A DNA stretch of 64,000 nucleotides from a virus: the IMG/VR virus record IMGVR_UViG_3300028394_000042. One strand, written 5' to 3'. Position 1 is the first letter of the stretch, and each line of letters starts with the position of its first letter. The notes below the pieces were generated by a model. That model saw only the letters and a program-made list of their open reading frames with translations, was not told where the DNA came from and ran no database searches. The translations under genes and the position numbers were made by a program. Of the stretch, positions 4,411 through 53,188 are shown piece after piece.

Positions 4411-4755
4411 TTAGGGTACGTACTTTGATTGCTGCGGTAAAAAGCCTTCGATGATATTGCCCAGCCGCGTAGCAGCTAGGCCATAAATTGCTACCACAAA
4501 AAGGCCACCAGTTGCGCCGCCGACCCACTTAGCTGCCAAAAGCAGCAGCAACAAGTAGAAGGGCACGTGATAAGATTTGCAGAACGGGCAATTCACCCAC
4601 TCAAGGAAGAGCCCTTTCAGGCTATCGTGCGGGGTGATGTCTTGCAACGCCTGCGCTTCTGCCCGGCGTGTAGCGAAGATTGAGCCCTTGTGCCACAGCT
4701 CAATAATGGCGCCGGAAGCGAGCGCAACTGCCAGAAACTCAATTGGCGTAAACAT
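4411..4755 (-). CDS. DUF1360-like membrane protein
   Basis: Three hydrophobic segments and the motif EWVNCPFCKSYH. Confidence 0.6.
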   Translation of the reverse strand: MFTPIEFLAVALASGAIIELWHKGSIFATRRAEAQALQDITPHDSLKGLFLEWVNCPFCKSYHVPFYLLLLLLAAKWVGGATGGLFVVAIYGLAATRLGNIIEGFLPQQSKYVP

Positions 4756-4763
4756 GGGTTTGG

Positions 4764-4937
4764 TTATCGCTTTCTACGTTCCGCTGTGAACCCGCGCATA
4801 AAGCACGCGCCAGTGTAAATAGCGGCACCTGCGCCGAGTAGCCCTGCAATACCAAGCTGGGGCACTGTGATGATGCCGGCAACGAGCATGAGCGCTGCGT
4901 AGCCGGCGAACGTTTTGTTGGGATCGGATTTTGGCAT
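4764..4937 (-). CDS. small two-TM membrane protein
   Basis: MPKSDPNKTFAGYAALMLVAGIITVPQLGIAGLLGAGAAIYTG..., basic C-terminus. Confidence 0.6.
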   Translation of the reverse strand: MPKSDPNKTFAGYAALMLVAGIITVPQLGIAGLLGAGAAIYTGACFMRGFTAERRKR

Positions 4938-4941
4938 CGTG

Positions 4942-5157
4942 TCATTGATTTCCATTTGGCCACACAGTCGTAAGGGCTGAGTCTGGGCCGTTAGGGTTGA
5001 AAGCAAATGCGGGATTTGGCAACGGCGCCTCTAGTTTGATGTTATGCACCGCGTTATCGGGCAGGTATACTTGCGGGCCGGGGCCGCGCCGAGTACCTTC
5101 GACGTACGCGCGTTTGCGCTCTTGATAGAGTCGGGCTGATTGGCCGATGATTGGCAT
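4942..5157 (-). CDS. hypothetical protein
   Basis: MPIIGQSARL... with SD GGAGG upstream. Confidence 0.7.
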   Translation of the reverse strand: MPIIGQSARLYQERKRAYVEGTRRGPGPQVYLPDNAVHNIKLEAPLPNPAFAFNPNGPDSALTTVWPNGNQ

Positions 5158-5213
5158 AGAACCTCCTACAAAATAATGGCGGACCACCGTTTAGTATATC
5201 CGCCGGCTAGCTG

Positions 5214-5390
5214 TTATTTCTTGAGTTTTTCTTGGGCTGCAGAAGCAGCGGCTTGGCATGTCTGCGCAAGGGCGGACGCCAAACCAACTACACCGCACAG
5301 GAACACGTAGCCTGTGAATTTAAGGCTGTCTTCCACCCACTGAAACTCCCAATCTTCGCTGGGCTGAATATTCGGACTGTTATTGCTCAT
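5214..5390 (-). CDS. 58-aa single-TM protein (below the ORF-track cutoff)
   Basis: Hand translation: MSNNSPNIQPSEDWEFQWVEDSLKFTGYVFLCGVVGLASALAQTCQAAASAAQEKLKK*. Confidence 0.55.
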   Translation of the reverse strand: MSNNSPNIQPSEDWEFQWVEDSLKFTGYVFLCGVVGLASALAQTCQAAASAAQEKLKK

Positions 5391-7305
5391 GATAAACGCT
5401 CGCTGTGACGATAAAGCTCACGCTGTGCCGCCAGACGGCATAGCTGAGTTAATCAGTAACTTGATGACAATCGACGCTACTGACCCGGCGTCTGTTCACG
5501 CCAAGGCCGGTATATTGAAAGAGCTGGCGGCTCGCTACGCGTTTCCGTCGCTGGAGCCAATCCTGCCTCTTGTGTTGAATTTGAATGGCTCGCCGTACAC
5601 CCTTCGCGACCACTTTGCTTTTTCGCCTTTGTTTCGCGTGCTTACGCCAAAGAGCCAAGTGTGGTGTACTGGGCGGCAGGTGTCTAAGTCTACGTCGCTT
5701 GCCGCGCACGGAGTTGTATTTGCGAACTCCGTGCCGTTTTCTAAGACGCTATACGTCACGCCACGGTTCGAGCAGGTGCGCCGGTTCAGCAACAATTACG
5801 TGCGCCCGTTTATAGATCAGTCGCCGGTAAAAGCGCAGTGGAGCGACACGACCACAGAGAACTCGGTGTTGCAGCGCTCGTTTCGCAACAACTCGATGAT
5901 GCTGTTCAGCTTTGCGCTGTTAGACGCTGATAGAACCCGCGGAGTGAGCGCCGACCGCGTTAATTTTGACGAGGTGCAGGATATGGATCCTGACCACGTG
6001 CCAATTATTCAAGAGACCATGTCTTACTCCAAGTGGGGTATCACATACTATACGGGTACTCCAAAAACGCTCGACAACCTGTTGTATGGGTTGTATCAAC
6101 GGTCGTCACAAGCTGAGTGGTTTGTTCCGTGCCATTCGTGCGGCAAGTGGAACATCCCGTCGCTTGAGCACGACCTTGACGCCATGATTGGCGACTACAG
6201 CATTCACATCAGCGAGAAGTATCCCGGGACTGTGTGCGCTAAGTGCCGGCAACCGATTAACCCGCGACACGGCAGGTGGGTACATAGATACCCAGACAGG
6301 CGTTGGCAGTTTGCTGGCTATCATGTGCCGCAGCTTATCTTGCCGCTGCATTTTGCCGACCCTGAAAAGTGGTCGACGCTGCTGCTCAAGCGCGAAGGCT
6401 ACGGCAATATGACACAAGCACAGTTCTATAACGAAGTCATGGGCGAAAGCGTAGACACAGGCCAGCGCCTTATCAGCGAAACTGATTTGCGCGCTGCTTG
6501 CCTTTTGGACTGGGAAAACAAAAAAGAACCTGACCCAAAGTGCATGAAGAACCTGAACGACTACAAGCACAGAATGCTGGCTATCGACTGGGGTGGTGGC
6601 GGAGAAGCCGGGGTCAGTTTTACCGTGTTGGCTGTGCTTGGGTTCCGCAATGACGGCACAATTGACGTCTTGTGGGCCAAACGACTGCTCATTGGCGGCG
6701 ACCACCTGCAGGAAGCAATTGAGTGCATGAAGTGGTGCAACTTGTTCAACTGCGACTTCGTAGCTCACGACTACACTGGCGCCGGCACAGTTCGCGAGAC
6801 TGTGATGGTGCAGGCTGGATTCAACCTCGACCGCGTAATGGCGATGCGGCTTGTCCGGTCGGCGGCTCAAGATTTACTTATCTATAAGCCGCCGACCGAG
6901 ATCAATCACCGCGCGCACTACAGCCTCGACAAGACCAGATCGCTGCTGTACACGTGCCAAGCCATCAAGCTGAAACAAGTCAGGTTTTTCCAGTACGACC
7001 GTATCTCGCAGGAATCCCCGGGGCTTGTCTCAGATTTTCTGGCCCTTGTCGAAAACAAAGCTGACGCTAGGTCAGGCAGCGACATATACACCATTACGCG
7101 CAACGTACTTCTGACAGACGACTTTGCGCAGGCTGTCAATATTGGCTGCGCGGCGTTGTGGCATATTAGCGACGCATGGCCAAACTTTGCCGCTATTGCT
7201 GGCGTAGCCCGGCTTACTGAGAAACAGGTAGAAACTGAAACCGTGAACTCTGCCGACGACTGGGCTGACGATTCAATTGGCAACAGTTACTTTGGCCGAT
7301 ACTAG
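5389..7305 (+). CDS. terL: terminase large subunit (lambda gpA-like)
   Basis: Walker A GRQVSKST, Walker B RVNFDEVQD, motif C TGTP, Zn pair CHSC/CAKC, nuclease motif LAIDWGG. Start uncertain (5389 or 5464). Confidence 0.92.
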   Translation: MINARCDDKAHAVPPDGIAELISNLMTIDATDPASVHAKAGILKELAARYAFPSLEPILPLVLNLNGSPYTLRDHFAFSPLFRVLTPKSQVWCTGRQVSKSTSLAAHGVVFANSVPFSKTLYVTPRFEQVRRFSNNYVRPFIDQSPVKAQWSDTTTENSVLQRSFRNNSMMLFSFALLDADRTRGVSADRVNFDEVQDMDPDHVPIIQETMSYSKWGITYYTGTPKTLDNLLYGLYQRSSQAEWFVPCHSCGKWNIPSLEHDLDAMIGDYSIHISEKYPGTVCAKCRQPINPRHGRWVHRYPDRRWQFAGYHVPQLILPLHFADPEKWSTLLLKREGYGNMTQAQFYNEVMGESVDTGQRLISETDLRAACLLDWENKKEPDPKCMKNLNDYKHRMLAIDWGGGGEAGVSFTVLAVLGFRNDGTIDVLWAKRLLIGGDHLQEAIECMKWCNLFNCDFVAHDYTGAGTVRETVMVQAGFNLDRVMAMRLVRSAAQDLLIYKPPTEINHRAHYSLDKTRSLLYTCQAIKLKQVRFFQYDRISQESPGLVSDFLALVENKADARSGSDIYTITRNVLLTDDFAQAVNIGCAALWHISDAWPNFAAIAGVARLTEKQVETETVNSADDWADDSIGNSYFGRY

Positions 7306-7796
7306 TTGTTTTCTGGATTGCCGTTGCAGCCAAACTTGCGTACAGCAGAGTTAATGTCGCTGTTCATAAGTTCGATGCCTTTTTCTGTAGGCGTAAAATC
7401 AAACTCGTTGGTTTCGGTGTTGAAGTCAACGCTCAGAAAGCCGTCTGCCGCAGCGCGCTGGCGGATGTTGCTAAACAACCGCTCGCCAATTGCCACCATC
7501 AGCGCGCCAATCTTTTTATTAGCTTCTTCTATTGAGTCTGCACCAATTGCGCTTACACCGTTTTCGTGAACAGTGGTGTGGTCTCTCACGATAGCCGACA
7601 CTTCTTCGGCCGGCAGGAAATCGCGTAATGAGTTGGCCATGGCCATAAAGTTTTGCGGGTTTGACAGAACCTCGGTCATTTGTGACGGATCTCGCATAAC
7701 CACGTTGGCCATGAACGAGCCAACTATGTAGTTGCGCAAATCATCGATAGACCCGCCAAAAAACCGCTTTGGTTCGCTGTTTTCCTCAAACAACAT
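7302..7796 (-). CDS. hypothetical protein
   Basis: 164 aa; its stop overlaps the terL stop in CTAG; AAGGAG upstream. Confidence 0.75.
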   Translation of the reverse strand: MLFEENSEPKRFFGGSIDDLRNYIVGSFMANVVMRDPSQMTEVLSNPQNFMAMANSLRDFLPAEEVSAIVRDHTTVHENGVSAIGADSIEEANKKIGALMVAIGERLFSNIRQRAAADGFLSVDFNTETNEFDFTPTEKGIELMNSDINSAVRKFGCNGNPENN

Positions 7797-8103
7797 TGTG
7801 GGCTCCTTGCATTAGGTTGGCATTGGCGACAGCGGCGTGATAAACGCCTTGCGCCAAAGTACGGGCTCCCGCTGCAATACGCAAGCGTTCCAGATGGCTG
7901 GCATAGTTTTCGTCGGAATAGACCATAGCTTCCGCGCTCGAAAACGAGTGCGGCTTGCCGGTCATGCGATTCTCGCCAGTCATGATGCGCCCGATTGCGG
8001 CCATCTTGATAGCCTGCCGGGCGTCTTCCAGCTCCATCTCGTGCATGACGGCGTCGCCCCATTGGCGGGCGGCTGTTTCGATTGCAATTGCTAGGTGATG
8101 CAT
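7786..8103 (-). CDS. hypothetical protein
   Basis: 105-aa helical protein containing TGKPHSFSSAE. Confidence 0.75.
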   Translation of the reverse strand: MHHLAIAIETAARQWGDAVMHEMELEDARQAIKMAAIGRIMTGENRMTGKPHSFSSAEAMVYSDENYASHLERLRIAAGARTLAQGVYHAAVANANLMQGAHNVV

Positions 8104-8124
8104 GTGCTTCTTTCTTTTTGTGGG

Positions 8125-8841
8125 TTACTCTCTACACAGGCCGCCGACCAGCCACATAGAGCCAAGGTCTATTGTTTGTTCCGTGTACAGCTCGGCTGTA
8201 AACTGTTCGTCTAATGCGCGCAACGTCATTGCCGCGGCGTCGGCGTCTAGCCGCAGTTCGTGGCGCTGATTGCCAAAACGCAACAACGGTTCGAGCGTTT
8301 CAGGCGTGATCAGCTCTTTGGTGCGAGCAATCCCGCTTAACGTCGCGTCAAAGTTTTCCGCAACTCTGTCGGCCGTTTTCTTTTTTACGCGCCACGTATC
8401 GTATGCGGTAGCGAGCGTCTTTTTCTGCTCGGGCGTAAGCTGATCGGCAACTGCTGGCGCTACGGTGCTGACTAAACAACGCATCGTGTAGCTCCAATCA
8501 GTCGCGTCGACTACTCTAAAATACGCGCCGCCATCCCATTGCTTGAGTTTTTTGCCGTTAAACGTGGGTTCTTTTGTGTACTCTTTGCGCGTGTCAGTGT
8601 ATTTGACCGCAATAGCGGACTCCCCTTTCGTGCAGATGTCGGCAAGGTATTCCCCAGCGGCAGCTTTGGTCGTAAATACGTAGTCAGTAACTTCAAAACC
8701 TGACAGCGTTGAGAACGTTCCGTTATATGCGTTATCGCCGTAAGCGTTGCGTAGCTCGTCTACGGTAGCAAAATAGTGCTCAGTCAATTCTTTCTTTGTG
8801 AGTTTTCCGTCAAATGCACAAGTGACAAAACACGCACCCAT
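8125..8841 (-). CDS. conserved phage hypothetical protein
   Basis: MGA...YGDNAYNGTFST...WLVGGLCRE pattern. Confidence 0.75.
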   Translation of the reverse strand: MGACFVTCAFDGKLTKKELTEHYFATVDELRNAYGDNAYNGTFSTLSGFEVTDYVFTTKAAAGEYLADICTKGESAIAVKYTDTRKEYTKEPTFNGKKLKQWDGGAYFRVVDATDWSYTMRCLVSTVAPAVADQLTPEQKKTLATAYDTWRVKKKTADRVAENFDATLSGIARTKELITPETLEPLLRFGNQRHELRLDADAAAMTLRALDEQFTAELYTEQTIDLGSMWLVGGLCRE

Positions 8842-8843
8842 GG

Positions 8844-9089
8844 TTACTCCGGGTTGTTGAGATCTCGCGTAGCTAGCTGTTCTTTGCGCGTTAGCTTGCG
8901 CTTGGGAAACTTATCCGCGTGGCACATAGCGCACCGGCTTTGCCGACACCCTGAGCACCGCTGCGTTTTGCGAAAGCGGCCGACGTCAGGAACAAATTTG
9001 TTATCGTCCGGCCCGAAGTGTCCGGCTAACCGCTTGTATTCTTTTGCGCGGTTCTCAATAAGTTGTTTTTCTTCGTGATAGCGTTTCAT
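8844..9089 (-). CDS. small basic Cys-containing protein
   Basis: Start MKRYHEEK; CSGCRQSRCAMCH motif. The 5' extension in the ORF track overlaps the RNA gene and is rejected. Confidence 0.7.
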   Translation of the reverse strand: MKRYHEEKQLIENRAKEYKRLAGHFGPDDNKFVPDVGRFRKTQRCSGCRQSRCAMCHADKFPKRKLTRKEQLATRDLNNPE

Positions 9090-9128
9090 TGCTGTTATGC
9101 CTCGCACAAGAGCTGTATGTAACACAAA

Positions 9129-9315
9129 AGCAGCAGGCCGGAGTCGAACCGGCTGTGATAGATTTGTACGGTTACCTGTCAATTCAGGCTTTAAGACGCC
9201 ACATCGGCTTGCGAATCAAGCAACCGGCGACGCCCCGACGCTTCGTCCGTTCAGGTGATCAGCCCATATCCGTCTATCACTTCAAGCTAAAACGCGCACC
9301 CCGCGTATCTGCTGC
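9129..9315 (-). ncRNA. tRNA-like / reduced tmRNA-like RNA (187 nt)
   Basis: Acceptor stem GCAGCAG/CTGCTGC plus U73; T-arm GCCGG-TTCGACT-CCGGC; an 8-bp helix GTGATAGA/TCTATCAC encloses ~110 nt containing the frame ADHLNGRSVGASPVA* (9263-9216). Confidence 0.75.
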
Positions 9316-9316
9316 A

Positions 9317-9347
9317 AAAGCCAGTGGCCGGGTACGACCCGGCAACA
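9317..9347 (-). repeat. duplicated 3' end of tRNA-Thr
   Basis: aaagccagtggccgggtacgacccggcaaca matches 9559-9589 at 29 of 31 positions. Confidence 0.9.
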
Positions 9348-9545
9348 CTATTTGGCGATATCTTTTTTGCTTTCCCTCAAATATTTGGACGCCTCAATTA
9401 GCCAGTACCCCATCTGTTCCATTTTTTCAGCTTCTTTCCCGGTCAGGTAAGAGGCTACATGAATGAAGGCGTAATCAATTTTACCCCTAGACACAATCTC
9501 TAGTGTGCCAAACGTTGGATCACTGAACTTTTCTGGCTTGTCCAT
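9348..9545 (-). CDS. small hypothetical protein between the two tRNA 3'-end repeats
   Basis: MDKPEKFSDPTFG..., GGAG SD. Confidence 0.7.
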   Translation of the reverse strand: MDKPEKFSDPTFGTLEIVSRGKIDYAFIHVASYLTGKEAEKMEQMGYWLIEASKYLRESKKDIAK

Positions 9546-9560
9546 AAGGTCTCCAATTAA

Positions 9561-9633
9561 AGCCAGTGGCCGGGTACGATCCGGCGACATGCAGTTTACA
9601 AAACTGCTGCTCTACCAACTGAGCTACACTGGC
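9561..9633 (-). tRNA. tRNA-Thr(UGU)
   Basis: GCCAGTG TA GCTC AGTTGGTA GAGC A GCAGT TTTGTAA ACTGC ATGTC GCCGG ATCGTAC CCGGC CACTGGC T; no encoded CCA; atypical T-loop. Confidence 0.92.
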
Positions 9634-9640
9634 GGCGGCT

Positions 9641-10105
9641 CTATTGTACAGCCTCTTGTGATACCGGCCAGACGTAAGGTAGATCTACTGGCTCAACCCA
9701 TTCAAACTGGCCGTAATACACAGGGTCTTTGCGCAAGAGATTACTGCGGTGGCTGGCGTGAAAGTTTTCGTCTTCTAACCACTCAGGCACGTCGTCGCTG
9801 TAGTCTTTGAAGCGCAACGCGTCTTCTACGGCGACAAACTGCGCTCGCAGCGTGTCTTTGAACCCGCGAATACGCCACTCGGTGCAGATATACTGAGCGT
9901 AAATAGCCAGTTGCACTTCATGCCCGCGCCACATGACTACAGCCGGATGGTTTTTCCAGCCGCGCTTGCCGGGAACATGTTCGCCAACAGGAACGCCCAG
10001 AGCGAGCAGGATTTGCTTGCACTCTAGGCGTTGTTTACCGAGTCTTTTGTTATCTAAAACACTTGCCGAATCTGCGTAGCTGGGCAGAGGCAAAAATGTC
10101 TGCAT
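9641..10105 (-). CDS. pyrimidine-dimer DNA glycosylase family (MSMEG_6728-like / endonuclease V-like)
   Basis: MQTFLP...LDNKRLGKQRLECKQIL...WKNHPAVVMWRG...HASHRSNLLRKDP. Confidence 0.88.
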   Translation of the reverse strand: MQTFLPLPSYADSASVLDNKRLGKQRLECKQILLALGVPVGEHVPGKRGWKNHPAVVMWRGHEVQLAIYAQYICTEWRIRGFKDTLRAQFVAVEDALRFKDYSDDVPEWLEDENFHASHRSNLLRKDPVYYGQFEWVEPVDLPYVWPVSQEAVQ

Positions 10106-10111
10106 GGTCGG

Positions 10112-10420
10112 TCAGTCCTCGTTTTCTTCTGTGTTTTCGGTGTCGTCGTCAATTGGTTCTTCGGCGGCTGTGCTTGGATCATCTTCGTTGTCTGGATCCC
10201 ACTCGCCGCTCCACTCAGAGTCGCTATTGTCTTCGTCGTCATCGTCGTCGATAACAAAGTTGATTTGCGGCTGCGGCATAAACTCGCCGTCATCGCTGTC
10301 GTCTGCGTTATCCTCGCGTACGACTTCCCACTGCCACTCGTCTTGATTGAAGTCGCCATCAAGCCCGTCGTCATGACGTGCGCGCCCAGCGCAGTGCCCT
10401 GTTCGAGTGTTGTGCAACAT
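10112..10420 (-). CDS. extremely acidic small protein
   Basis: 102 aa; D/E-dominated after residue ~16. Confidence 0.7.
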   Translation of the reverse strand: MLHNTRTGHCAGRARHDDGLDGDFNQDEWQWEVVREDNADDSDDGEFMPQPQINFVIDDDDDEDNSDSEWSGEWDPDNEDDPSTAAEEPIDDDTENTEENED

Positions 10421-10422
10421 GG

Positions 10423-13056
10423 TTATCCGATTTCTTGCGCCGTGGTGGTCTCTTGCGGGTCTTGCCAGAATTTATCGCACCAACCAGTCGGTACGAGAAT
10501 ACCCGGCATATTCTGCACAATTTCTTCTCCAGAAAAAAGCCCCGCTTTACTGAGCAGCTCAATTATCGCCAGCCAATTGGGCGGCGCGCTTTTCTGTAGT
10601 TCAAAATACCGGTCTATGGCGCGGCGGTTGAGCCACCAATTATCGGCACGGCGCAACAGGTAGTTGTACGCTTGCTGCTTGTTTCTAGGGCGCGGTAACA
10701 CGGCCAGCTTACCTAGTTGGATAGCATTGTTTAGCTCGCCCATAAGCGTGATGTGCGCTGTTTTTGGGCTGACCAATTTGTTCAGCGCGCACGGCAAATG
10801 GAACGCTGTGCCGTAAGTCTCGTCTAGCCAGCGGTGCAGGTCACGCAGCACGACCTCGGTAAGCGTGCCGGTTTGGGCGGCTAGGCTCATGCGGCTACGC
10901 AGCGTGCGCTGGATGTAAGCGGGAAGCACATGTTGCAGCACCGAGAAGTCTGTATTAGCTGCAGGGGCTGTGCCGTTGATCAGCTGCCAGCCGTAACCAG
11001 TTGCTATAGCGGCGCACGTTGGAGTTAACCGCACGGTCACAGGCAGGTTATGGCACCGTGTAACTGCCGCGCTGAATACGGTGTCGTCAAAGGCGTTTGA
11101 AGCTAGTAGCGGCCAGTCTGATTCGTTGCTGGCTTTAACCAGCTGTTGTGCGTTGTGGCTTTTACGCAACCCCGCATATTGTATATGAGCGCAGTTCAAG
11201 GCTGCGGCAATGCGTACAGCCGCGTTAAAGTTTGCGCCGACTATGCCAATAGCCGCGCTGTCTTTACGCAGCACCGGCGCCAGTAGCTGCGCTGTGATCC
11301 CGGCAAACACAGTCCAGATGAACGAGTTTTCATAGCTGGGTGTTAAAAACTGCCGGATAGCTGGCGGGGCTACAGGCGTTGGCTCGGGAAAAGATATCTT
11401 TGATCGGTTGCGCTGCAGTAGATTAGCCAGCGTGATTTCGCCGTCTGTGCCAAGTTCGTATTGCGCGAACCGGAACACAGACGCATACTCGTCCCAGCCA
11501 GCGCGCCCTGACACCATGATTAGCTCAGGTTGGTGTAGCTGGATTGCGAGCAAGTGGCTGCGCCTATTCCACGCCCGGTCAAACACAATGAGTTTGCCGT
11601 GGGGCGCTGCGTGGGCCGCGGCGAAAGACAGCAGGCCCATGCGCTCTATCTTTGTAGCCGTGTCGCAGAACTCCAGCGCGTCGTTTTTTATGTAGATAGT
11701 GCCGGAGTACAGCTTTTCGCCGTTGTCAGCTTGGATGATTTTTTTGATCACGGGCCGGGCTGAGCAAATCTGGTGGCCAAGCTGGTTCCACCAGCTGTTG
11801 TCTTTCTCTACGATGACCCAGCGTCGGTGCGCTTTTGTCGGCGCTGTGGGCGCGACGGCTAAGGCTGTTATGACCCGGCTGGCGAACGTCGCAGACAAGT
11901 TTACGTCGCACTTCAGCAGAAAATGCTGCAGCTTATCGTGCGGCACCATGAGCCTAGACGCGAACGAGTAGGCTGATATTTCATTCATGCCGCGCAGTGT
12001 TTTCTGCAAGCTGTTTTGCCAAGTCGCAGCGCTACGCCGGATTTCAGCGAGCGTGGTAATGGCGGGAGCTTCGCGCACCCTAGCAGCTGGCGCGAGCGGC
12101 GTTACGCAGACGTAACCTTTGGCGTGGCATGCCCGGCTGACAAGTTCTGGCGTAATCGTGTTGCCGTGAAACATGCGCGGAATAGGCGGGAACGCAAGCC
12201 AGCTGGGGCCGTAGCTGGTAGCTTCGGGGCCATTGTAGCTGGCCATGATGGGCAGCAGATCCAAGCCGTGCGCGCGTTGTTTACACTGAGCACGCAAGGC
12301 CCAGAATGGGTCGTCTACTACAAACTGCGAGCTTTTGAGTAGCTCAGGCCCCGGTAGTGTGGCTGTCTTGAGCAGGAAGTACCCAGCTTCTGGGCGTTGC
12401 CGGGTGTAGCCGCTGGTCGGTATGAACGTGCTTTTGGTCGCGAAGTCCTCGGCGTACTGCACGACTAGCACGCCTGTTGGGCGCCCGGGTAGATCGTAGA
12501 ACGGGAACACGATGCTGGCGCCGTCTGCCCTGAGCTTAGTGGGTTTGGGGCGGCCCACTTCTGAGCACAAGTTTACGATCTGGTCGTGGTGCGCTACGCC
12601 GACTAGGCCGTCAGCGCAAATTTCTTTGCCGACGCCTAGTTCCCGCAGGCGGCAGGCGATCACGTCGTCGCCGTGGTTCCAGATCTGCGCCTCAGCGTCG
12701 CACCAGAAGTTCTCGACAGCCAACTGGCGCCGTAACCCTCGGTCGTACTGCCCGGCTAAGTTATCTTTATCCCCGGAATTTACCAGTCCAAGGTCGGCAA
12801 ACCGGGTCAATGCAGCCGGCAGGCTTGTATTCCATATCAGCGCGCCAAACGTTATGATATCTCCATGGGCCGCGCACCGGTCGCAGTGCAGCCAAATACC
12901 GTCTGTTGTGATATCGTCGAACAGGTGCAACGCAGTTTGTTGGCATAGCGGACACTGAACAACTGCTGGAAACGCAGGTTTTTCCAGCTCAATACCCAAA
13001 GCTGACAGCGCCCCCATGTGGTGCTGACGGCGGACTAAACAGGTAGGCAAACCCAT
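10423..13056 (-). CDS. large protein with N-terminal primase-type zinc finger (divergent primase-like)
   Basis: CPLC...WLHCDRCAAHGDII, later IVFPFYDLPGRPTG. No convincing TOPRIM or Walker motifs. Confidence 0.55.
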   Translation of the reverse strand: MGLPTCLVRRQHHMGALSALGIELEKPAFPAVVQCPLCQQTALHLFDDITTDGIWLHCDRCAAHGDIITFGALIWNTSLPAALTRFADLGLVNSGDKDNLAGQYDRGLRRQLAVENFWCDAEAQIWNHGDDVIACRLRELGVGKEICADGLVGVAHHDQIVNLCSEVGRPKPTKLRADGASIVFPFYDLPGRPTGVLVVQYAEDFATKSTFIPTSGYTRQRPEAGYFLLKTATLPGPELLKSSQFVVDDPFWALRAQCKQRAHGLDLLPIMASYNGPEATSYGPSWLAFPPIPRMFHGNTITPELVSRACHAKGYVCVTPLAPAARVREAPAITTLAEIRRSAATWQNSLQKTLRGMNEISAYSFASRLMVPHDKLQHFLLKCDVNLSATFASRVITALAVAPTAPTKAHRRWVIVEKDNSWWNQLGHQICSARPVIKKIIQADNGEKLYSGTIYIKNDALEFCDTATKIERMGLLSFAAAHAAPHGKLIVFDRAWNRRSHLLAIQLHQPELIMVSGRAGWDEYASVFRFAQYELGTDGEITLANLLQRNRSKISFPEPTPVAPPAIRQFLTPSYENSFIWTVFAGITAQLLAPVLRKDSAAIGIVGANFNAAVRIAAALNCAHIQYAGLRKSHNAQQLVKASNESDWPLLASNAFDDTVFSAAVTRCHNLPVTVRLTPTCAAIATGYGWQLINGTAPAANTDFSVLQHVLPAYIQRTLRSRMSLAAQTGTLTEVVLRDLHRWLDETYGTAFHLPCALNKLVSPKTAHITLMGELNNAIQLGKLAVLPRPRNKQQAYNYLLRRADNWWLNRRAIDRYFELQKSAPPNWLAIIELLSKAGLFSGEEIVQNMPGILVPTGWCDKFWQDPQETTTAQEIG

Positions 13057-14233
13057 GTCAAATATTCCGTTGGATCAGATACAGGACGTTAGTGGCCGCG
13101 AAACCCACAGGCTTACCGCTCTTCATCCCGCGCCCGATTTTGTTAAATCAGCTGCGCCGGAACGGCTTTCTGGCGATGGCACACTTCCTCGCCACTTGTA
13201 TGCTGATCCGCGCAACAAACTTTACCCATGTCACACTGCGCCTGCAACATGGATGTCTGCGTTGTTTTTCACAGACAAACAAGCCAGCTTTGATAAGGCG
13301 ACAGCGGACGCTATCCAATCCAAGATACACAAAGCAGCTGAGTATTTCGGCATTTCTGGTCTTGTAGCCGAACTGGAGAAGACGTCGGCAGCCCAAAGCG
13401 GGTTGTCTGAAAGCCAACTGCCGGACGACGCTTTTGCTGTTGTCTGGGTAGGCGACAATGGCAACACAGAACGCCACTGGCCGATGCGCAACGCTACGGA
13501 AGTCAAGTTTGCCGCTGCGCATTTCCAGAAGTACCGGGACGAGTTTGTATTCGAAGACCGGCACATGATTGCCACCAAGATCCTGAAGAAAGCCGCGCAG
13601 TACAGCGCTGACACGTCTGATACAAACGGCTCGCTGGAAATGGCCGCTGGCCTCGGCGCCTGTGCGGCAAAGGTCGCCAGCCAAATGATTAAAGACCGCG
13701 TACGGCTCACGCAACGGGACCATGGCCCGCTGGCCGCTGAGTTGTCAAAGTTAGCTACTGTGATTGACCAGCACCCGGAGAAAGCTCGGGAACTGGACAC
13801 GCGGCTAAAGTTGGCGAGCGCGGTCGACCAATTTGACAAGAGCACGCAGCTGCACCGGCTTTACGACGCCGGCGGGTTGTCGCGGCCCGAAGAAGTGCTT
13901 TTTGCCATTACCGAGAAAGTCGCTCGTGACTTCATGCAGCACAACGTCGAGACCACCACGGGCAACGTGTATGCCCTTGATGATCTGGAGAAGCTGGCCG
14001 TTGAAGACGTCCGCGAATGGATGGGCGACGACTTCGCTGACGCTGTGAGCGCTGGCGGTGTTTACATGGACCGCGACAAGCTGGCTGAGATTGTCCCCAC
14101 ACTTGACCGGGGTATGGCAGCCACGCTTGACCGGCTTGTGCAAGAGAAGAACGCCGGCGCTGTTGTGAAGCAGGCGGCAGCAGCTGATACGCTGCTGCCA
14201 TTGAGCAAGCTATACGAGTTGGCTAAAGGCTGA
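13055..14233 (+). CDS. K-x-A-rich putative virion head protein
   Basis: 392 aa, SD AGGTAGG; about 14 K-x-A motifs by hand count (VKSAA, DKQAS, EKVAR, EKLAV, VKQAA...). Confidence 0.75.
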   Translation: MSNIPLDQIQDVSGRETHRLTALHPAPDFVKSAAPERLSGDGTLPRHLYADPRNKLYPCHTAPATWMSALFFTDKQASFDKATADAIQSKIHKAAEYFGISGLVAELEKTSAAQSGLSESQLPDDAFAVVWVGDNGNTERHWPMRNATEVKFAAAHFQKYRDEFVFEDRHMIATKILKKAAQYSADTSDTNGSLEMAAGLGACAAKVASQMIKDRVRLTQRDHGPLAAELSKLATVIDQHPEKARELDTRLKLASAVDQFDKSTQLHRLYDAGGLSRPEEVLFAITEKVARDFMQHNVETTTGNVYALDDLEKLAVEDVREWMGDDFADAVSAGGVYMDRDKLAEIVPTLDRGMAATLDRLVQEKNAGAVVKQAAAADTLLPLSKLYELAKG

Positions 14234-14243
14234 TTATCCCGTT

Positions 14244-14282
14244 TTATCTGGGCTTAGATAATTTATGCGGGCTTAGATAATT
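14244..14282. terminator. hairpin and short tandem duplication between convergent genes
   Basis: TTATCT-GGGCTT-AGATAA inverted repeat; gggcttagataatt occurs twice. Confidence 0.4.
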
Positions 14283-14523
14283 CAGTTTGTCGCTTTTCAG
14301 CTGCTTTGAGCTTTGCAATCAGCTCATTTAACGACGCGCGCACGTCGGTATCTTGCTGTGCAGCTACGCGCGTAGCCGGGTCAATGTTTTGCGACGTTAA
14401 CCCAAAACACGGCTCTGCGGCTTCTGCGGCGCGTAGCTCTTCCGAGTACAACAGCCACCCTTCGTAACTGTCTTCCTCACTTGGCAGGGCCGGGTCTTCC
14501 CTTAGCCTGTCGTTCCAGCCCAC
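14263..14523 (-). CDS. hypothetical protein
   Basis: 86 aa, overlaps the 3' end of csrA. Confidence 0.65.
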   Translation of the reverse strand: MGWNDRLREDPALPSEEDSYEGWLLYSEELRAAEAAEPCFGLTSQNIDPATRVAAQQDTDVRASLNELIAKLKAAEKRQTELSKPA

Positions 14524-14698
14524 GTTTCACCGGTTTTTCTTTAGTGCGCGGCGCGCCTAATTCACCGCGCATGATGGTTACATTAGCCGGCGCTGTTAGG
14601 CCCAGTCGCACGCGGCCTTTCTCAATCGATAGAACGCGGATAACCACGTTATCGCCAATCATGATGTCTTCATTCAGTTCCCGCGATAGCACTAACAT
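14477..14698 (-). CDS. csrA: carbon storage regulator (translational regulator)
   Basis: MLVLSRELNEDIMIGDNVVIRVLSIEKGRVRLGLTAPANVTIMRGEL; SD GAGGGGTG. Confidence 0.93.
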   Translation of the reverse strand: MLVLSRELNEDIMIGDNVVIRVLSIEKGRVRLGLTAPANVTIMRGELGAPRTKEKPVKRGLERQAKGRPGPAK

Positions 14699-14708
14699 TG
14701 TTCACCCC

Positions 14709-15380
14709 TCAAGCGTCTTGCTTCTTAGCGCCGCGCAACATGTCTACGACATACTGCGTGGATCCATTTTTTAAGTTCAACGCGGCCATCTGCTGGGCTA
14801 ACAGGTCTGCCCGTAGCTGCAGCGTACGCGTGATGTCATCTGTCTTGCCTGCTTCAACGTCGTATATGGCGCTGAACATTGCCGGGTCATCCGAGAAATC
14901 TGTCATGTGCGGCGACGTTCTAGTCTTGCGGAAAGCGATGCGCAAGATATCAGGCGGGTTCATGATGCCTTCTTGGTCAAGCATGGTGCCGATGTAGGCG
15001 CGGATCTCGTCTGTAAACGGATCTGCTTCTTCAGGCGGCTCGATTAGCAGGGCTTCGGTAATCCCCCACGCGATCTCCTCAACGTCTGCAGGATCCCACA
15101 TGTCAGGCTGGTACGTGTCGCCGCTGAGCACGTTGCAGAACGAGATGAAGTCAGGCAGGCTTTTGAAGAACCTATCTGTCGTCAGGATCTGGATGCCGAC
15201 GATTAACTTATCTAAAGGCAGCTGCGGCAGATCGACCTTGAACTCTTCTTCGATCTCCAGCGTGATAGTGGCCGGATCCCATTCCAGCGCCTCCATCCCG
15301 AACCTGTCGAGGAACAACGTGAGCAGTACGCTGGCAAATGTGTCAGGACTCTTCCACGCTTCTTGCAGTAGGTTTGACAT
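14709..15380 (-). CDS. hypothetical protein
   Basis: Probable start MSNLLQEAWK; acidic helical protein. Confidence 0.75.
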   Translation of the reverse strand: MSNLLQEAWKSPDTFASVLLTLFLDRFGMEALEWDPATITLEIEEEFKVDLPQLPLDKLIVGIQILTTDRFFKSLPDFISFCNVLSGDTYQPDMWDPADVEEIAWGITEALLIEPPEEADPFTDEIRAYIGTMLDQEGIMNPPDILRIAFRKTRTSPHMTDFSDDPAMFSAIYDVEAGKTDDITRTLQLRADLLAQQMAALNLKNGSTQYVVDMLRGAKKQDA

Positions 15381-15837
15381 GCTTCCCGGCCCTATTCTCG
15401 ATCTGCAGTACACCCCGGCGGTACAGCTCATTTAGATTGTACCCAATTGTCTCCATAGGCGGATTAGGAAGAGACGTAACCTCTTCCCCAGACTCAAGAT
15501 CTGTAAAGCCCGCGTGAGTGGTCCATGTGGCGTATTGGCCGTCTGCAAAGACCAGCTGCATCAGGCACTCCCGGCACGACTCTGGTTCTGTGAGCACTGG
15601 TTTGAGCGCCGTGAGCAAAAGCGTGCGCTGCTCTGGCTTGAGAAATACCAGTTTCTCCAGCATGTCAGCTATCAGCAGAAACATGACGGTAATCTGGTCT
15701 AGTGAGTCAGCAGCTGCAGCGGGTTTAACGCCAAGCACAGTTGTAAAAATTGCCCGCACTTGCAGCTTGCTTAACTTCACGACTCGCATTACCATATCAA
15801 GCGTTACGGTTTTTTCTACTTCGGAGGTATTTTCCAT
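15343..15837 (-). CDS. hypothetical protein
   Basis: Start at MENTSEVEK (15837) or METMEN (15846). Confidence 0.7.
   Translation of the reverse strand: MENTSEVEKTVTLDMVMRVVKLSKLQVRAIFTTVLGVKPAAAADSLDQITVMFLLIADMLEKLVFLKPEQRTLLLTALKPVLTEPESCRECLMQLVFADGQYATWTTHAGFTDLESGEEVTSLPNPPMETIGYNLNELYRRGVLQIENRAGKHVKPTARSVEES
15767..15795 (+). promoter_or_regulatory. candidate sigma70 promoter for the plus-strand gene at 15836
   Basis: TTGCTT-N17-TACCAT, located inside the opposite-strand CDS. Confidence 0.4.
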
Positions 15838-16111
15838 GGTTTCCATCGTTGACGGTCTTTCCAAGGTGGCGTCGGGTCGGGCGGAGTTTGTGGTCAGCGG
15901 TAGCGGCGTGGAGGAACTCATGTCGGCCGCAACGTCGAACATTGTGATCCAGAAGGCTGCAGAGCTGGGTTTGAACCGCCCGGGTGTGTCTAACGCCAGC
16001 GGGCCGTACCCCGTTGACGCCGAAGGCAAGACCGACGATGACCTCCTGCTCGGCAAGCGCGGCCCAGTGGCTGCTTACCAGCGGGATTTTGTTATCTTAG
16101 CGTCGATCTAA
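15836..16111 (+). CDS. small putative virion protein
   Basis: MVSIVDGLSKVASGRAEF... with GGAGG SD; contains KVA and KAA motifs. Confidence 0.75.
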   Translation: MVSIVDGLSKVASGRAEFVVSGSGVEELMSAATSNIVIQKAAELGLNRPGVSNASGPYPVDAEGKTDDDLLLGKRGPVAAYQRDFVILASI

Positions 16112-16578
16112 GCGTCGTCGCGGCGGTCTACGACGAAAAAGTGTACAGGCGCGCCGTTGTCAAACTGCACGACTGCAAAACAAACCGGCGTAGCGCAATC
16201 GATTTCGAGCCGCTTGCTGATTTCGTAGGCTTTTTGACGGCGCATTGTTGTTGCAAACTTGACAGCGTCATCATAATCTGAAAACAGGCCGACCGGCACA
16301 TCATCCATTGTGTGCCGCCAAATCACTAAAAAACCTGTTAACCCGGATTTAGGAGCCGCGCTGCGTGTTTTACGCGGCGCGGTTTTCTTTTTGCGCGCAG
16401 CAACCGGCGTCTGCCGCGGGGCTAACTTGCCTGCGTAGTCCACCATTGTGAACCCGGTTAACCGCGCTGTTGGTTTCTTTTTGCTTACGGGGTTTTTCTT
16501 TTTGCCCGCAGCAGCTACCTTGCCTGCGTAGTCCACCATTGTGAACCCGGTTAACCGCGCTGTTGGTTTCTTTTTCAT
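16108..16578 (-). CDS. basic protein with N-terminal tandem repeat
   Basis: KKKPTARLTGFTMVDYAGK occurs twice; K/A-rich linker; small globular C-terminus. Confidence 0.75.
   Translation of the reverse strand: MKKKPTARLTGFTMVDYAGKVAAAGKKKNPVSKKKPTARLTGFTMVDYAGKLAPRQTPVAARKKKTAPRKTRSAAPKSGLTGFLVIWRHTMDDVPVGLFSDYDDAVKFATTMRRQKAYEISKRLEIDCATPVCFAVVQFDNGAPVHFFVVDRRDDA
16426..16575. repeat. perfect 57-bp direct repeat, two copies (16426-16482 and 16519-16575)
   Basis: cttgcctgcgtagtccaccattgtgaacccggttaaccgcgctgttggtttcttttt is identical in both copies. Confidence 0.95.
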
Positions 16579-16579
16579 G

Positions 16580-17044
16580 TCATTCCTCTACGCCAAAGGT
16601 GTCAATGTGGGCTAAGCGAGCGGCGTAAAACTCCGCAACAGCCCCGGCTACTTCTTCAAATCGCCGTTCGATCTCTGGAATGATAGTAGCCTCGAACACT
16701 TTCATAACGGTCTTTTTGTATTTTGCAAGCGCCGCCGTGGAGTACTTGGCTGCGCGTGCTTTTTCGGCGCCTTCTCTAATCGCTGGACTTGCGTCGAGCA
16801 GTAGCTGCAAGAACGCTGGGCACACGAAGTCGATTGTGTGCCCGTAGGTTTGCCGCACTTCAATTGGCGCAGCGACGCTGAACATGCCGTTGCCGGGCCA
16901 TATGTCGCCGGGTTTTGAGTCGGACGTCGGGTACCGCAATTTTCCCAGCGCCCAACCATACGCGGCGGCATCGTCGTTCGGCTCTTCCATACGGAACTTG
17001 GGCTTACGCTTTTCTATCGGCGTGTCGAGTTTTGCTTTTCGCAT
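16580..17044 (-). CDS. hypothetical protein
   Basis: 154-aa ORF in a co-oriented run. Confidence 0.7.
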   Translation of the reverse strand: MRKAKLDTPIEKRKPKFRMEEPNDDAAAYGWALGKLRYPTSDSKPGDIWPGNGMFSVAAPIEVRQTYGHTIDFVCPAFLQLLLDASPAIREGAEKARAAKYSTAALAKYKKTVMKVFEATIIPEIERRFEEVAGAVAEFYAARLAHIDTFGVEE

Positions 17045-36792: not shown

Positions 36793-37605
36793 TTAAAATC
36801 CGCCGTAGGTGTGTCGTTTGTCTAGCATGCCCTGAATCTTAGCCGCGCGTTGGCTTACAGCGCCCGGTGTAATTTTCAATTTCTGCGCAATTTCCTGTGT
36901 GCTTGTACGCCGCCGCCCGTTACGCCCGAGCGTCATATCTGCAATGAGTTTATCGGTCGGTCCCAAATCGTCATAGACAAAGTTGAACCACGCATCTGCA
37001 GCGTTGTTCGCGCCGGGAATGCTGCTGGCCATTCCGTCTCCGTAGCTGTCTTCGCTTGTCTCGCGTGTCGTTGTGCCTTCTGCGAGCGGCTGGTTGAATC
37101 GCCTGATTTTTTGAATACGGCGCTTGGACAGGCCGGTGGAATCAGCCAGCTCGTCATCTGTCGGGTCGCGCCCAAGAACGTCGTTAAGTTCTATTTCGTG
37201 TTCGTTCAATCTGGAGAAATCAAGGCCAGCCTGCTCTGGCACGTTGATAATATTTTGCGATTGCGCCGACAACCGCCGAATACCCTGTAACTGTGAAAGC
37301 AAATGCGTGCGGACATTACCCCGCTCTGGGTCAAAACTGCCTAGAGCCTTGAGCGCCATAATTTTTGCCCGCGACTTGATCGTTGGCCCGGCCGTGTTAC
37401 CGGCATAACTCGACACAGCCGTGTCGATTACGGGCTGGATTGTCTTCAACATAGCCGTGCTTGCTTCGGGCGTTTTGTTTGTCTGCCACTGCGCATATGC
37501 GTTGCTGAAATCATCATGCACACCAGCCGGGCGAGAACCAGAAAACGGTCCGCGAATATCGCCAAGAATAGACGGCGCGCCAGTAGTTGTGATTTTGTCG
37601 CTCAT
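36793..37605 (-). CDS. sigma70-family RNA polymerase sigma factor (FliA/SigF-like architecture)
   Basis: Region 2 ALKALGSFDPERGNVRTH; region 3 LGRDPTDDELADSTGLS; region 4 STQEIAQKLKITPGAVSQR. Confidence 0.88.
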   Translation of the reverse strand: MSDKITTTGAPSILGDIRGPFSGSRPAGVHDDFSNAYAQWQTNKTPEASTAMLKTIQPVIDTAVSSYAGNTAGPTIKSRAKIMALKALGSFDPERGNVRTHLLSQLQGIRRLSAQSQNIINVPEQAGLDFSRLNEHEIELNDVLGRDPTDDELADSTGLSKRRIQKIRRFNQPLAEGTTTRETSEDSYGDGMASSIPGANNAADAWFNFVYDDLGPTDKLIADMTLGRNGRRRTSTQEIAQKLKITPGAVSQRAAKIQGMLDKRHTYGGF

Positions 37606-48827: not shown

Positions 48828-48883
48828 TATGCCACCAAATGGTGTGGTTACGGGCTGTTGCCCAAGGCGTATAGCCTAATACC

Positions 48884-48920
48884 ATAAACGGCGGTCGCGT
48901 AAAACGCAACCGCCGTTTAT
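48884..48920 (-). terminator. intrinsic terminator after the tail tube gene
   Basis: ATAAACGGCGGTTGCGT-TTT-ACGCGACCGCCGTTTAT hairpin. Confidence 0.75.
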
Positions 48921-52384: not shown

Positions 52385-52426
52385 GCGTCAGCCTCCGTGC
52401 CTATTTGTGTGCGGTTTTGCGGTCAC

Positions 52427-52461
52427 TGGGTAGTATACCTCACTACCCATTTCAAAAACAA
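52427..52461 (-). promoter_or_regulatory. candidate sigma70-type promoter with overlapping palindrome upstream of the sheath gene
   Basis: TTGTTT-N18-TATACT; TGGGTAGT-N7-ACTACCCA inverted repeat spans the -10 box. Confidence 0.5.
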
Positions 52462-52477
52462 AACCAGTAAAGTGAAT

Positions 52478-53188
52478 TTAACAAGACAGTAAATCTGATG
52501 CCTTGAAGACAATCCGCTTTAGGCGCGGTGCATACGGCTGGAGCGTCCAAGCTTCCTCGGCCATGTATGACACAGTGACAGGTACGGCATATCCCTGCAC
52601 AACTTCTTGAACCTCTCCTGCTCCGCCAACCTCAGACACAATGAACTTATGCAAGTCCATTTGGTCGCGAATCATTGGCGAAAAATGACCTAAAAACCTG
52701 ACAACTTCGGCGGCTAAGTATTCGTTCTCAGAGCCGGTGGCAGCTAAACAGAACAATGTGTGGCTGCCGGCCCAAAGCCCGGCATATGAGTTAGCTCCAG
52801 TATAATCATTCTGCCCACTCAAATCACCAATACCCTGCCGCTGCCATTGCCACGCATTTCGTTTAATCAACACGGCCGGGCGTTTATCAGCTGTATTTGG
52901 GGCCCAGCGCGTAATACTCTCAATCAGAATTCCGCCGGCGTTTAACCCGTTATCAACCGGTCGCCAAGCTCCAAGATCTTGTACCTGCCTACGCACACGC
53001 GGCTCGTCTACATTGTCGGCGTCTGCAAAGTGCGTAATAAGCAGTTGGCGCAGCAGTCCTGTCATTACGTGGGGGCGCATGCCGTAAGAACACAGCGAGC
53101 TAACTTTGCCTACGCGGTTCTCTGGTGTGCTGCCGGCCGGGAATTCAGCTTCTACTTCTGGCGGGTTTAACGGATCGCAGGTGCTCAC
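52478..53188 (-). CDS. putative tail terminator / neck protein
   Basis: Immediately upstream of the sheath gene; KRPAVLIKRN. Confidence 0.55.
   Translation of the reverse strand: MSTCDPLNPPEVEAEFPAGSTPENRVGKVSSLCSYGMRPHVMTGLLRQLLITHFADADNVDEPRVRRQVQDLGAWRPVDNGLNAGGILIESITRWAPNTADKRPAVLIKRNAWQWQRQGIGDLSGQNDYTGANSYAGLWAGSHTLFCLAATGSENEYLAAEVVRFLGHFSPMIRDQMDLHKFIVSEVGGAGEVQEVVQGYAVPVTVSYMAEEAWTLQPYAPRLKRIVFKASDLLSC

Follow-up and report, generated by a model that had tools for sequence, protein, structure and literature searches.

Three conserved single-gene inversions without intergenic DNA in a phage genome otherwise coded on one strand

Can a phage gene begin inside the start codon of its divergent neighbor, with no DNA left between the two, and if so, how are such genes expressed? 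The question is raised by a stretch of 64,000 nucleotides (nt) of the IMG/VR virus record IMGVR_UViG_3300028394_000042, in which terL, the gene for the terminase large subunit, and two genes for proteins of 392 and 91 amino acids (aa) lie on the plus strand among minus-strand genes. This stretch, called the window below, covers bases 14759–78758 of the 120-kilobase (kb) record, which is estimated to be 59% complete. A first-pass annotation had noted that each of the three genes starts in a CATG that also contains an in-frame minus-strand ATG (junctions 1 to 3, with divergent partners of 58, 877 and 167 aa), and that terL and the 91-aa gene end in 4-nt stop-stop overlaps, CTAG and CTAA; all of these are present (Table 1). 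Divergent overlapping pairs are often suspected to be mis-annotations. They are indeed as uncommon as the annotation held, being the rarest class of gene overlap, with 331 of 14,958 overlapping pairs in 58 prokaryotic genomes (PMC2174442). The explanation that we consider probable, though by no means assured, is that the three loci are conserved, spacer-free single-gene inversions of the noncontiguous-operon or excludon type, with antisense read-through to the minus-strand genes downstream.

A near-identity DNA search against cultured phages gave no match for the window, and a protein search with TerL gave matches of at most 31% identity, the closest cultured one being Salmonella phage Arash (about 31%). 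Uncultured relatives were collected from IMG/VR in two sets. A scan with TerL yielded 37 loci at 74–86% identity and one at 49%, and a scan with an alignment of the 392-aa protein yielded 65 loci at 40–77% identity. Several relatives are on contigs of 193–226 kb, one of them with terminal repeats.

The simplest explanation would be an annotation artefact: the true starts could lie elsewhere (5464 for terL, 13017 for the 877-aa gene), or the small open reading frames (ORFs) might not be genes, and normal spacers would then exist. Public gene calls on identical DNA do disagree, giving 638 or 613 aa for TerL, 877 or 864 aa for the partner at junction 2, and 167, 150 or 148 aa for that at junction 3 (starts 5389/5464, 13056/13017 and 15846).

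Alignment of homologs fixes both starts at junction 2. The CATG is kept in 27 of 27 loci of the first set and, together with a long minus-strand ORF, in 46 of 53 distinct junctions from the 65 loci of the second, including members at 40–45% identity. It is also kept between the 877-aa-like and 392-aa-like genes of the distant contig with the 49%-identical TerL (L062, 2650–2653). The exceptions, which have CATATG or short spacers, are all among the most distant members. Methionine at 13017 is not conserved, most relatives have a stop 15–18 nt upstream of the ATG of the 877-aa gene, and the N-terminal peptides of both proteins are conserved with synonymous variation.

Both starts of junction 1 are likewise supported. 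ATG 5389 is the sole start codon common to all 37 related loci; position 5464 is occupied in relatives by CTG, ATC, GCG and other codons, and the peptide encoded between 5389 and 5464 is conserved. TerL itself belongs to the terminase family by its matches to phrog_675 (E = 4e-59 over residues 67–597) and Pfam GpA_ATPase (3e-13; 50.4 bits against a cut-off of 25.6). The 58-aa ORF, which the annotation had allowed might be neither conserved nor translated, represents a family found in all relatives with its ATG at the junction. Its members share the motif E[FL]QW[VL]EDS followed by a hydrophobic segment and a basic tail, and the predicted product is a conserved small protein of membrane type. 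Plus-strand frames over it are mostly broken; in particular, the shadow ORF 5232–5408, considered as a real gene or as an ORF coupled to terL, contains stops in most relatives and was rejected. The distance to terL varies: among 24 distinct small-protein sequences, CATG and CATATG are found in 11 each and a spacer of 11–12 nt in two. In the distant relative with the 49%-identical TerL (L034, 1184–1360) the two starts are about 160 nt apart, with a GC hairpin in the spacer, and the 877-aa-like gene follows terL directly (L034/L062).

At junction 3, comparison of the 91-aa frame with the co-open antisense frame (4.13 versus 3.32 BLOSUM units per residue, no stops), together with 67–84% protein identity across relatives, identifies the 91-aa gene as real. 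Replacing it by a minus-strand ORF extended to 16056 (237 aa) was rejected by the same frame comparison and by the absence of such an ORF from public calls. Its ATG (or one codon upstream) is conserved, with GGAGG 8–11 nt upstream. The minus-strand start reaches into the plus-strand gene by 11 nt in 12 of 35 distinct junctions, by 14 nt in 12 and by 2 nt in nine, where the CATG holds the sole nearby ATG. This gives an overlap range of 2–14 nt, apart from a single junction with a reach of 38 nt. One relative (L064) has a stop nine codons upstream and no start codon between this stop and the shared CATG, which is therefore the sole candidate. In the window both 15846 (an 11-nt overlap, the form used by public calls) and 15837 are available.

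In view of these homologs, mis-annotation is essentially excluded and an artefact is most improbable; gene callers appear to avoid head-to-head overlaps inconsistently. Thus two of the three alternative starts proposed in the first-pass annotation, 5464 and 13017, can be rejected, and 15846 stands beside 15837. The CATG overlap, whose conservation it proposed to examine, is kept by relatives at junction 2, while the exact tetranucleotide is not required at junctions 1 and 3. The conservation of the three junctions across dozens of divergent genomes is more than expected by chance.

The strand distribution of genes was determined with a crude self-trained codon-usage gene caller on the 120-kb contig and on two complete relatives. 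The contig has a coding fraction of about 94% and yielded 146 calls. Besides terL and the 392-aa gene, a single call fell on the plus strand, a 115-aa ORF beyond the limits of the window, which was rejected as a fourth inverted gene because it is non-conserved and compositionally odd. The 91-aa gene was missed by the caller, masked by its antisense ORF, and was placed by homology. In the complete relatives about 99% of genes are on one strand: 229 minus-strand versus three plus-strand calls in a genome of 198 kb with terminal repeats, and 213 versus four in one of 205 kb. Plus-strand calls common to all three genomes are terL and the 392-aa gene; the other plus-strand genes of the complete relatives are lineage-specific. 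One of these, a thioredoxin-like gene with a signal-peptide-like start (G002, 52338–52661), has a homolog on the minus strand of another relative (G003, 86218–86457) and is flanked by ordinary spacers of 190 and 31 nt, in contrast to the flush conserved inversions. Hence, in a genome coded almost wholly on one strand, conserved inversions are limited to terL and the genes for the 392-aa and 91-aa proteins.

Each of the three has minus-strand genes on both sides and is thus an opposite-strand gene within a co-directional run, as in a noncontiguous operon. The excludon or noncontiguous-operon logic proposed in the first-pass annotation therefore agrees with the anatomy. Its further claim that late genes are embedded in non-structural operons finds no support, as only terL has an assigned function, and the tail-fiber and sheath genes are on the minus strand like nearly all others. 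Searches of PHROGs and Pfam gave no match for the 58-, 877-, 392-, 91-, 167-, 164- and 156-aa proteins, except for a weak, sub-threshold match of the 392-aa protein to DUF6582. Sequence searches of the PDB with partner proteins, the 392-aa and 877-aa ones among them, were empty, and an Atlas search of the partner proteins returned only unnamed viral clusters. As these searches were empty, the labels "primase-like" and "late/K-x-A head protein" could not be verified. The model of the 91-aa protein is a small alpha/beta fold (predicted local distance difference test score, pLDDT, 84) with no significant fold match in the PDB.

Where are the signals of genes that have no intergenic DNA? As had been argued, the ribosome-binding sites of the inverted genes must be written into the coding sequences (CDSs) of their neighbors; this follows from the abutting or overlapping starts. 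Codon alignments were made for each partner gene, and residues conserved in at least 85% of the sequences were checked for the use of a single codon. In the 877-aa gene (21 sequences) only four of 98 conserved degenerate residues are single-codon sites, and they fall in two clusters, P4 and D66-I67-I68. The first belongs to the Shine-Dalgarno-like block AGGTAGG, in which P4 is a single-codon site and T5, C6 and L7 are nearly invariant (rare codons CCT, ACC and TGT, with TTA adjacent). A purine-rich Shine-Dalgarno-like block is present at this position in all relatives, including the distant ones. The second cluster consists of the invariant codons that spell the block TTATGATATC, where ATA accounts for 12% of Ile codons. 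Among 41 distinct sequences with 58% identity or more, 39 have the block at −198 to −204, and it is a candidate embedded promoter element of the 392-aa gene.

The 167-aa gene (13 sequences) shows the same kind of constraint. Invariant codons include T7 ACC, S8 TCC, V19 GTA, S26 AGC and K27 AAG, and Q29 is CAA in 92%; on the plus strand they spell TTGCTT-N17-TACCAT and GGAGGT. The promoter-like and GGAGG sequences that the annotation had pointed out upstream of the 91-aa gene thus coincide with invariant and mostly rare codons of the partner (GTA is 20% of Val, TCC 8% of Ser and ACC 17% of Thr codons). By sequence the former is of sigma-70 type, with four of six matches in each hexamer, A2 and T6 in the −10 element and a 17-nt spacing kept in relatives; a stricter scan demanding 9 of 12 matches does not list it. 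A sigma-70 promoter scan of 4500–16700 gave fewer matches than shuffled sequences and none at the junctions. Of 35 distinct relatives, 31 have the two-hexamer pattern within 110 nt before the start of the 91-aa gene, yet the generic form TTGNNN-N16-18-TANNAT has only five matches on one strand of the entire 120-kb contig and four on the other. A second such site, TTGNNN-N16-TACCAT at 48858–48885 on the plus strand, is intergenic between minus-strand genes with no plus-strand gene after it; an antisense or small RNA might be its product. The −10 hexamer before the 91-aa gene, an unusual one, recurs in an intergenic TGGACA-N17-TACCAT upstream of a minus-strand gene outside the window (minus strand, contig 100596–100676, that is 85838–85918 in window coordinates).

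Another motif, TTANNATATC, is found upstream of all three inverted genes, which account for three of its four plus-strand matches in 120 kb, with none on the minus strand. As it was defined after the sites had been seen, we keep it as a lead only and not as a common plus-strand promoter motif. At terL, the motif is part of a palindromic element for which a minus-strand TATACT promoter is the better reading.

In the reverse direction, single-codon sites in terL, the 392-aa gene and the 91-aa gene number 3 of 202, 7 of 218 and 2 of 47, all scattered and without clusters. The lack of constrained synonymous clusters in the inverted genes fits minus-strand genes that rely on promoters further upstream. 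The only hints of signals before the minus-strand starts are weak Shine-Dalgarno-like purines.

The start of terL differs from the others: other genes, including the small 58-aa gene, normally have a Shine-Dalgarno-like sequence before them, whereas terL lacks one in all relatives. This feature and the universal ATG could mean that terL, and possibly its partner, is translated from a leaderless mRNA starting at the A of the ATG, with the −10 element in codons 3–5 of the small gene and promoters placed face to face around CATG or CATATG. A −10-like hexamer (at least four of six matches, with A2 and T6) does end 5 or 7 nt before the terL ATG in 15 of 25 distinct relatives, as opposed to an average of 0.5 of 25 at other offsets. 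However, the sequence of the window itself fails this test, many of the 15 matches come from close relatives, the hexamers derive from Asn and Tyr codons of the small-protein N-terminus, and no −35 or extended −10 element was seen. A phiKZ-type late promoter at TATG was rejected because transcription from this motif starts at the G (PMC4666361) and would not give a leaderless AUG. Nor can leaderless translation explain junctions 2 and 3, as the small, 392-aa and 91-aa genes all have Shine-Dalgarno-like sequences. We regard it as highly doubtful.

A conserved hairpin lies in the short gap that follows the 58-aa gene. Its computed fold is accompanied by compensatory changes in the stem and a conserved loop; its minus-strand sequence contains TATACT and its plus-strand sequence TAGTAT, and one subgroup has it as a double GTATAC palindrome. 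There is a similar element at 52424–52437, upstream of the sheath gene. The element may be a promoter of the next minus-strand gene, possibly a bidirectional one.

The 3' ends are similarly compact. The 4-nt stop-stop overlap of terL is present in 14 of 22 distinct relatives, the rest having overlaps of 7–24 nt or gaps of 2–5 nt, and the 91-aa gene ends with a 4-nt overlap or a gap of 0 nt in 10 of 11. The 3' spacing of the 392-aa gene is variable among relatives; in the window, two copies of a 14-nt direct repeat, 20 nt apart, span the 29-nt convergent gap after this gene and the end of the next minus-strand gene (14250–14283). Flush convergent ends leave no room for terminators, which lends indirect support to read-through. 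In agreement with this, no strong minus-strand terminator was found inside the inverted genes.

Plus-strand terminators were sought as well. Conserved ones after terL and the 392-aa gene are absent from the subgroup of the window, and strong terminators after the 392-aa gene are restricted to a more distant subgroup, which has spacers. In nine loci (the window and eight relatives) the stop codon of the 91-aa gene is followed, 247–306 nt later, by a plus-strand hairpin with a T-run. Its stem sequence differs between the window and the relatives, so that it is conserved as a structure and is a candidate intrinsic terminator of the 91-aa transcript. It coincides with the basic N-terminal tail of the 156-aa minus-strand protein. 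In the window this N-terminus (16400–16578, minus strand) contains a tandem duplication of a lysine-rich stretch of about 19 aa, and the relatives of this protein (105–118 aa) have one shorter basic tail.

The most economical reading of this anatomy is the extreme compaction of three ancient single-gene inversions. The layout, the start codons, their conservation and the embedded Shine-Dalgarno and promoter-like sequences can be read from the alignments; from them we infer read-through, antisense interplay and timing. At its 5' end each inverted gene abuts or overlaps the start of the next minus-strand gene (CATG, CATATG or an overlap of 11–14 nt), and at the 3' end two of the three overlap the stop codon of the preceding one. 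The ribosome-binding sites and, for the 91-aa gene, a putative sigma-70-type promoter and a terminator-like hairpin would then act from within neighboring genes, where selection on synonymous sites keeps them in place. The minus-strand genes downstream of the inversions would most likely be served by transcription passing antisense through the inverted gene, whose mRNA would be complementary both to this polycistronic RNA and to the 5' end of the partner message. Transcription of the array around them would dampen the expression of the inverted genes, and the two would be anti-correlated; mutual exclusion of the paired genes is plausible. There is precedent for this mode of action of the layout in bacteria and in phage 80alpha (PMC7154746; PMC11087260), and by analogy it may apply here.

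The shared CATG would be the end point of spacer loss and thereafter a trap, since none of its bases can be substituted without loss of one start codon or both, and the genes can be parted again only by inserting two bases to give CATATG. With two ATGs sharing bases, selection on both starts freezes the tetranucleotide, which would explain the deep conservation of junction 2. The variable spacing at junctions 1 and 3 and the spacer of about 160 nt at terL in the distant relative imply that CATG need not be a signal itself.

The baseplate region of the window contains a minus-strand gene (36793–37605) for a 270-aa sigma-like factor that matches Pfam Sigma70_r3 above threshold and region 4 weakly.

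Several observations weigh against the compaction of three inversions with read-through. No plus-strand promoter was identified for terL, and for its only conserved upstream element a minus-strand TATACT promoter appears to be as good a fit as a plus-strand one, or a better one. The 392-aa gene has a −10-like block but lacks a convincing −35 element (TTCCAn-N17-TATGAT). The sequence that forms the hairpin downstream of the 91-aa gene codes for a conserved basic peptide as well, and the hairpin could instead act in the minus-strand mRNA. Synonymous-site scans may miss minus-strand promoters because the phage encodes a sigma-like factor and may have promoter rules of its own. Finally, the trap explains why the CATG of junction 2 is kept across very deep divergence, but so would positive selection for the overlap.

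Such selection is the core of another explanation, in which the overlap itself is a regulatory device: the complementary 5' ends would pair over both ribosome-binding sites, block initiation and invite RNase III, resulting in a reciprocal either/or switch. This would account for the occurrence of the arrangement in all three inverted genes, for the depth to which the CATG of junction 2 is kept (46 of 53 distinct junctions, down to 40% identity) and for the position of each partner's Shine-Dalgarno sequence within the first codons of the other, and there is precedent in excludons and noncontiguous operons, where overlapping transcripts regulate genes reciprocally. Yet any overlapping divergent transcripts have complementary 5' ends, and zero spacing is not needed for that. 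Moreover, junctions 1 and 3 vary in spacing and some relatives have a spacer, and purifying selection on two start codons alone predicts conservation of the CATG. If the minus-strand genes use long read-through RNAs, the whole inverted gene is already covered by antisense RNA, and the overlap of the starts adds little. A selected switch is thus possible, but in our opinion rather unlikely.

A broader version makes the start-codon overlaps a selected timing device of the whole large-phage family. The packaging motor and two partner-coupled genes would be translated only once single-strand read-through subsides, their ribosome-binding sites being held until then in a duplex with the 5' end of the partner; in a variant, both messages of a pair would start at the palindrome itself. 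If this were true, the CATG of the 877-aa and 392-aa genes, kept to 40% identity, would mark a functionally coupled and reciprocally expressed pair. We consider a family-wide timing device distinctly unlikely.

Table 1. Features at the three junctions and at the 3' ends of the inverted genes, in window coordinates.
Feature	Position	Strand	Basis or remark
CATG, junction 1	5388..5391	both	terL ATG at 5389 and minus-strand ATG of the small gene ending at 5390
terL, terminase large subunit, 638 aa	5389..7305	+	phrog_675, Pfam GpA_ATPase; start by conservation
58-aa small protein gene, divergent partner of terL	5214..5390	-	ORF and family alignment
Conserved hairpin, GTATAC core in loop	5178..5204 (loop 5185-5198)	both	short gap between the 58-aa gene and the next minus-strand gene
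CTAG stop-stop overlap	7302..7305	both	terL and convergent 164-aa minus-strand gene (7302-7796)
CATG, junction 2	13054..13057	both	plus-strand ATG at 13055 (392-aa gene) and minus-strand ATG ending at 13056 (877-aa gene)
877-aa gene, N-terminal Cys/His cluster	10423..13056	-	start by conservation and upstream stops
392-aa gene	13055..14233	+	ORF; conserved at 40-77% identity in 65 loci
AGGTAGG, Shine-Dalgarno-like block	13041..13047	+	7 nt upstream of the ATG of the 392-aa gene; codons 4-6 of the 877-aa gene
TTATGATATC block with -10-like TATGAT, candidate promoter element	12852..12861	+	inside the 877-aa gene, about 200 nt upstream of the 392-aa start
CATG, junction 3	15835..15838	both	ATG of the 91-aa gene at 15836 and in-frame minus-strand ATG at 15837
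91-aa gene	15836..16111	+	frame comparison, alignment
167-aa gene (165 aa if start 15837)	15343..15846	-	divergent partner of the 91-aa gene
GGAGG, Shine-Dalgarno sequence of the 91-aa gene	15823..15827	+	codons T7 and S8 (ACC TCC) of the 167-aa gene
TTGCTT-N17-TACCAT, sigma-70-type promoter-like	15767..15795	+	inside the 167-aa gene, 41 nt upstream of the 91-aa ATG
CTAA stop-stop overlap	16108..16111	both	91-aa gene and convergent 156-aa minus-strand gene (16108-16578)
GC-rich hairpin followed by T-run, candidate terminator	16352..16395	+	within the CDS of the 156-aa minus-strand gene

The arrangement resembles several known systems. In the noncontiguous operon menE-menC-MW1733-ytkD-MW1731 of S. 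aureus, one opposite-strand gene with its own promoter is nested in a co-directional array (PMC7154746), and ith-1/tha-1 and other antisense genes of phage 80alpha have the same nested layout (PMC11087260). Such nesting is expected to result in overlapping RNAs, polymerase collisions and reciprocal expression (PMC7154746; PMC11087260). The loci studied here differ in having no intergenic DNA at either end, with starts overlapping by 2–14 nt, stops by 4 nt and the identified signals inside the CDSs of neighbors, and in that the nested genes include an essential packaging enzyme and not an accessory regulator. The flanking genes of a noncontiguous operon are co-transcribed on one RNA running antisense through the nested gene; for the present loci such co-transcription is a prediction from the sequence. 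In excludons, described in Listeria and others, divergent genes also have 5' regions that must be transcribed across each other, and mutual exclusion is proposed to result from antisense pairing and RNase III (PMC7154746). Classical excludons have long untranslated regions that span the intergenic region and the neighboring gene, while here the coding sequences themselves meet or overlap.

Among prokaryotic divergent overlaps the commonest phase is 123:213 (PMC2174442), that of the shared CATG, in which codon positions 1 and 2 face each other and the third positions coincide. Unlike typical divergent overlaps, those described here are verified by homologs and conserved in dozens of divergent phage genomes. 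Salmonella phage Arash is a large myovirus with subunits of a multisubunit RNA polymerase and a sigma factor in its virion (PMC10585845). The present phage also has a sigma-like gene, but the flush inversion is not shared, as terL of Arash is co-oriented with the genes after it and has ordinary spacers.

Nested antisense genes are thus already known in bacteria and phages, and what is new is the degree and the conservation. As far as the alignments go, the new features are inversions that are spacer-free at both ends, the inclusion of an essential packaging gene, putative regulatory elements placed on rare synonymous codons, and one pair whose CATG is kept family-wide. For the annotation of this phage group they suggest a rule, as gene callers are currently split between overlapping and truncated starts. 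The deep conservation of the 877-aa and 392-aa pair marks it as a conserved module and offers a functional lead. More generally, promoter-like, Shine-Dalgarno and terminator-like elements appear to be kept inside other genes by means of rare synonymous codons, and two start codons have shared two bases over what must be a very long evolutionary time. The three loci may therefore serve as a compact natural model for asking whether antisense-nested genes of lytic phages are timed by overlapping transcription, as in the temperate phage 80alpha.

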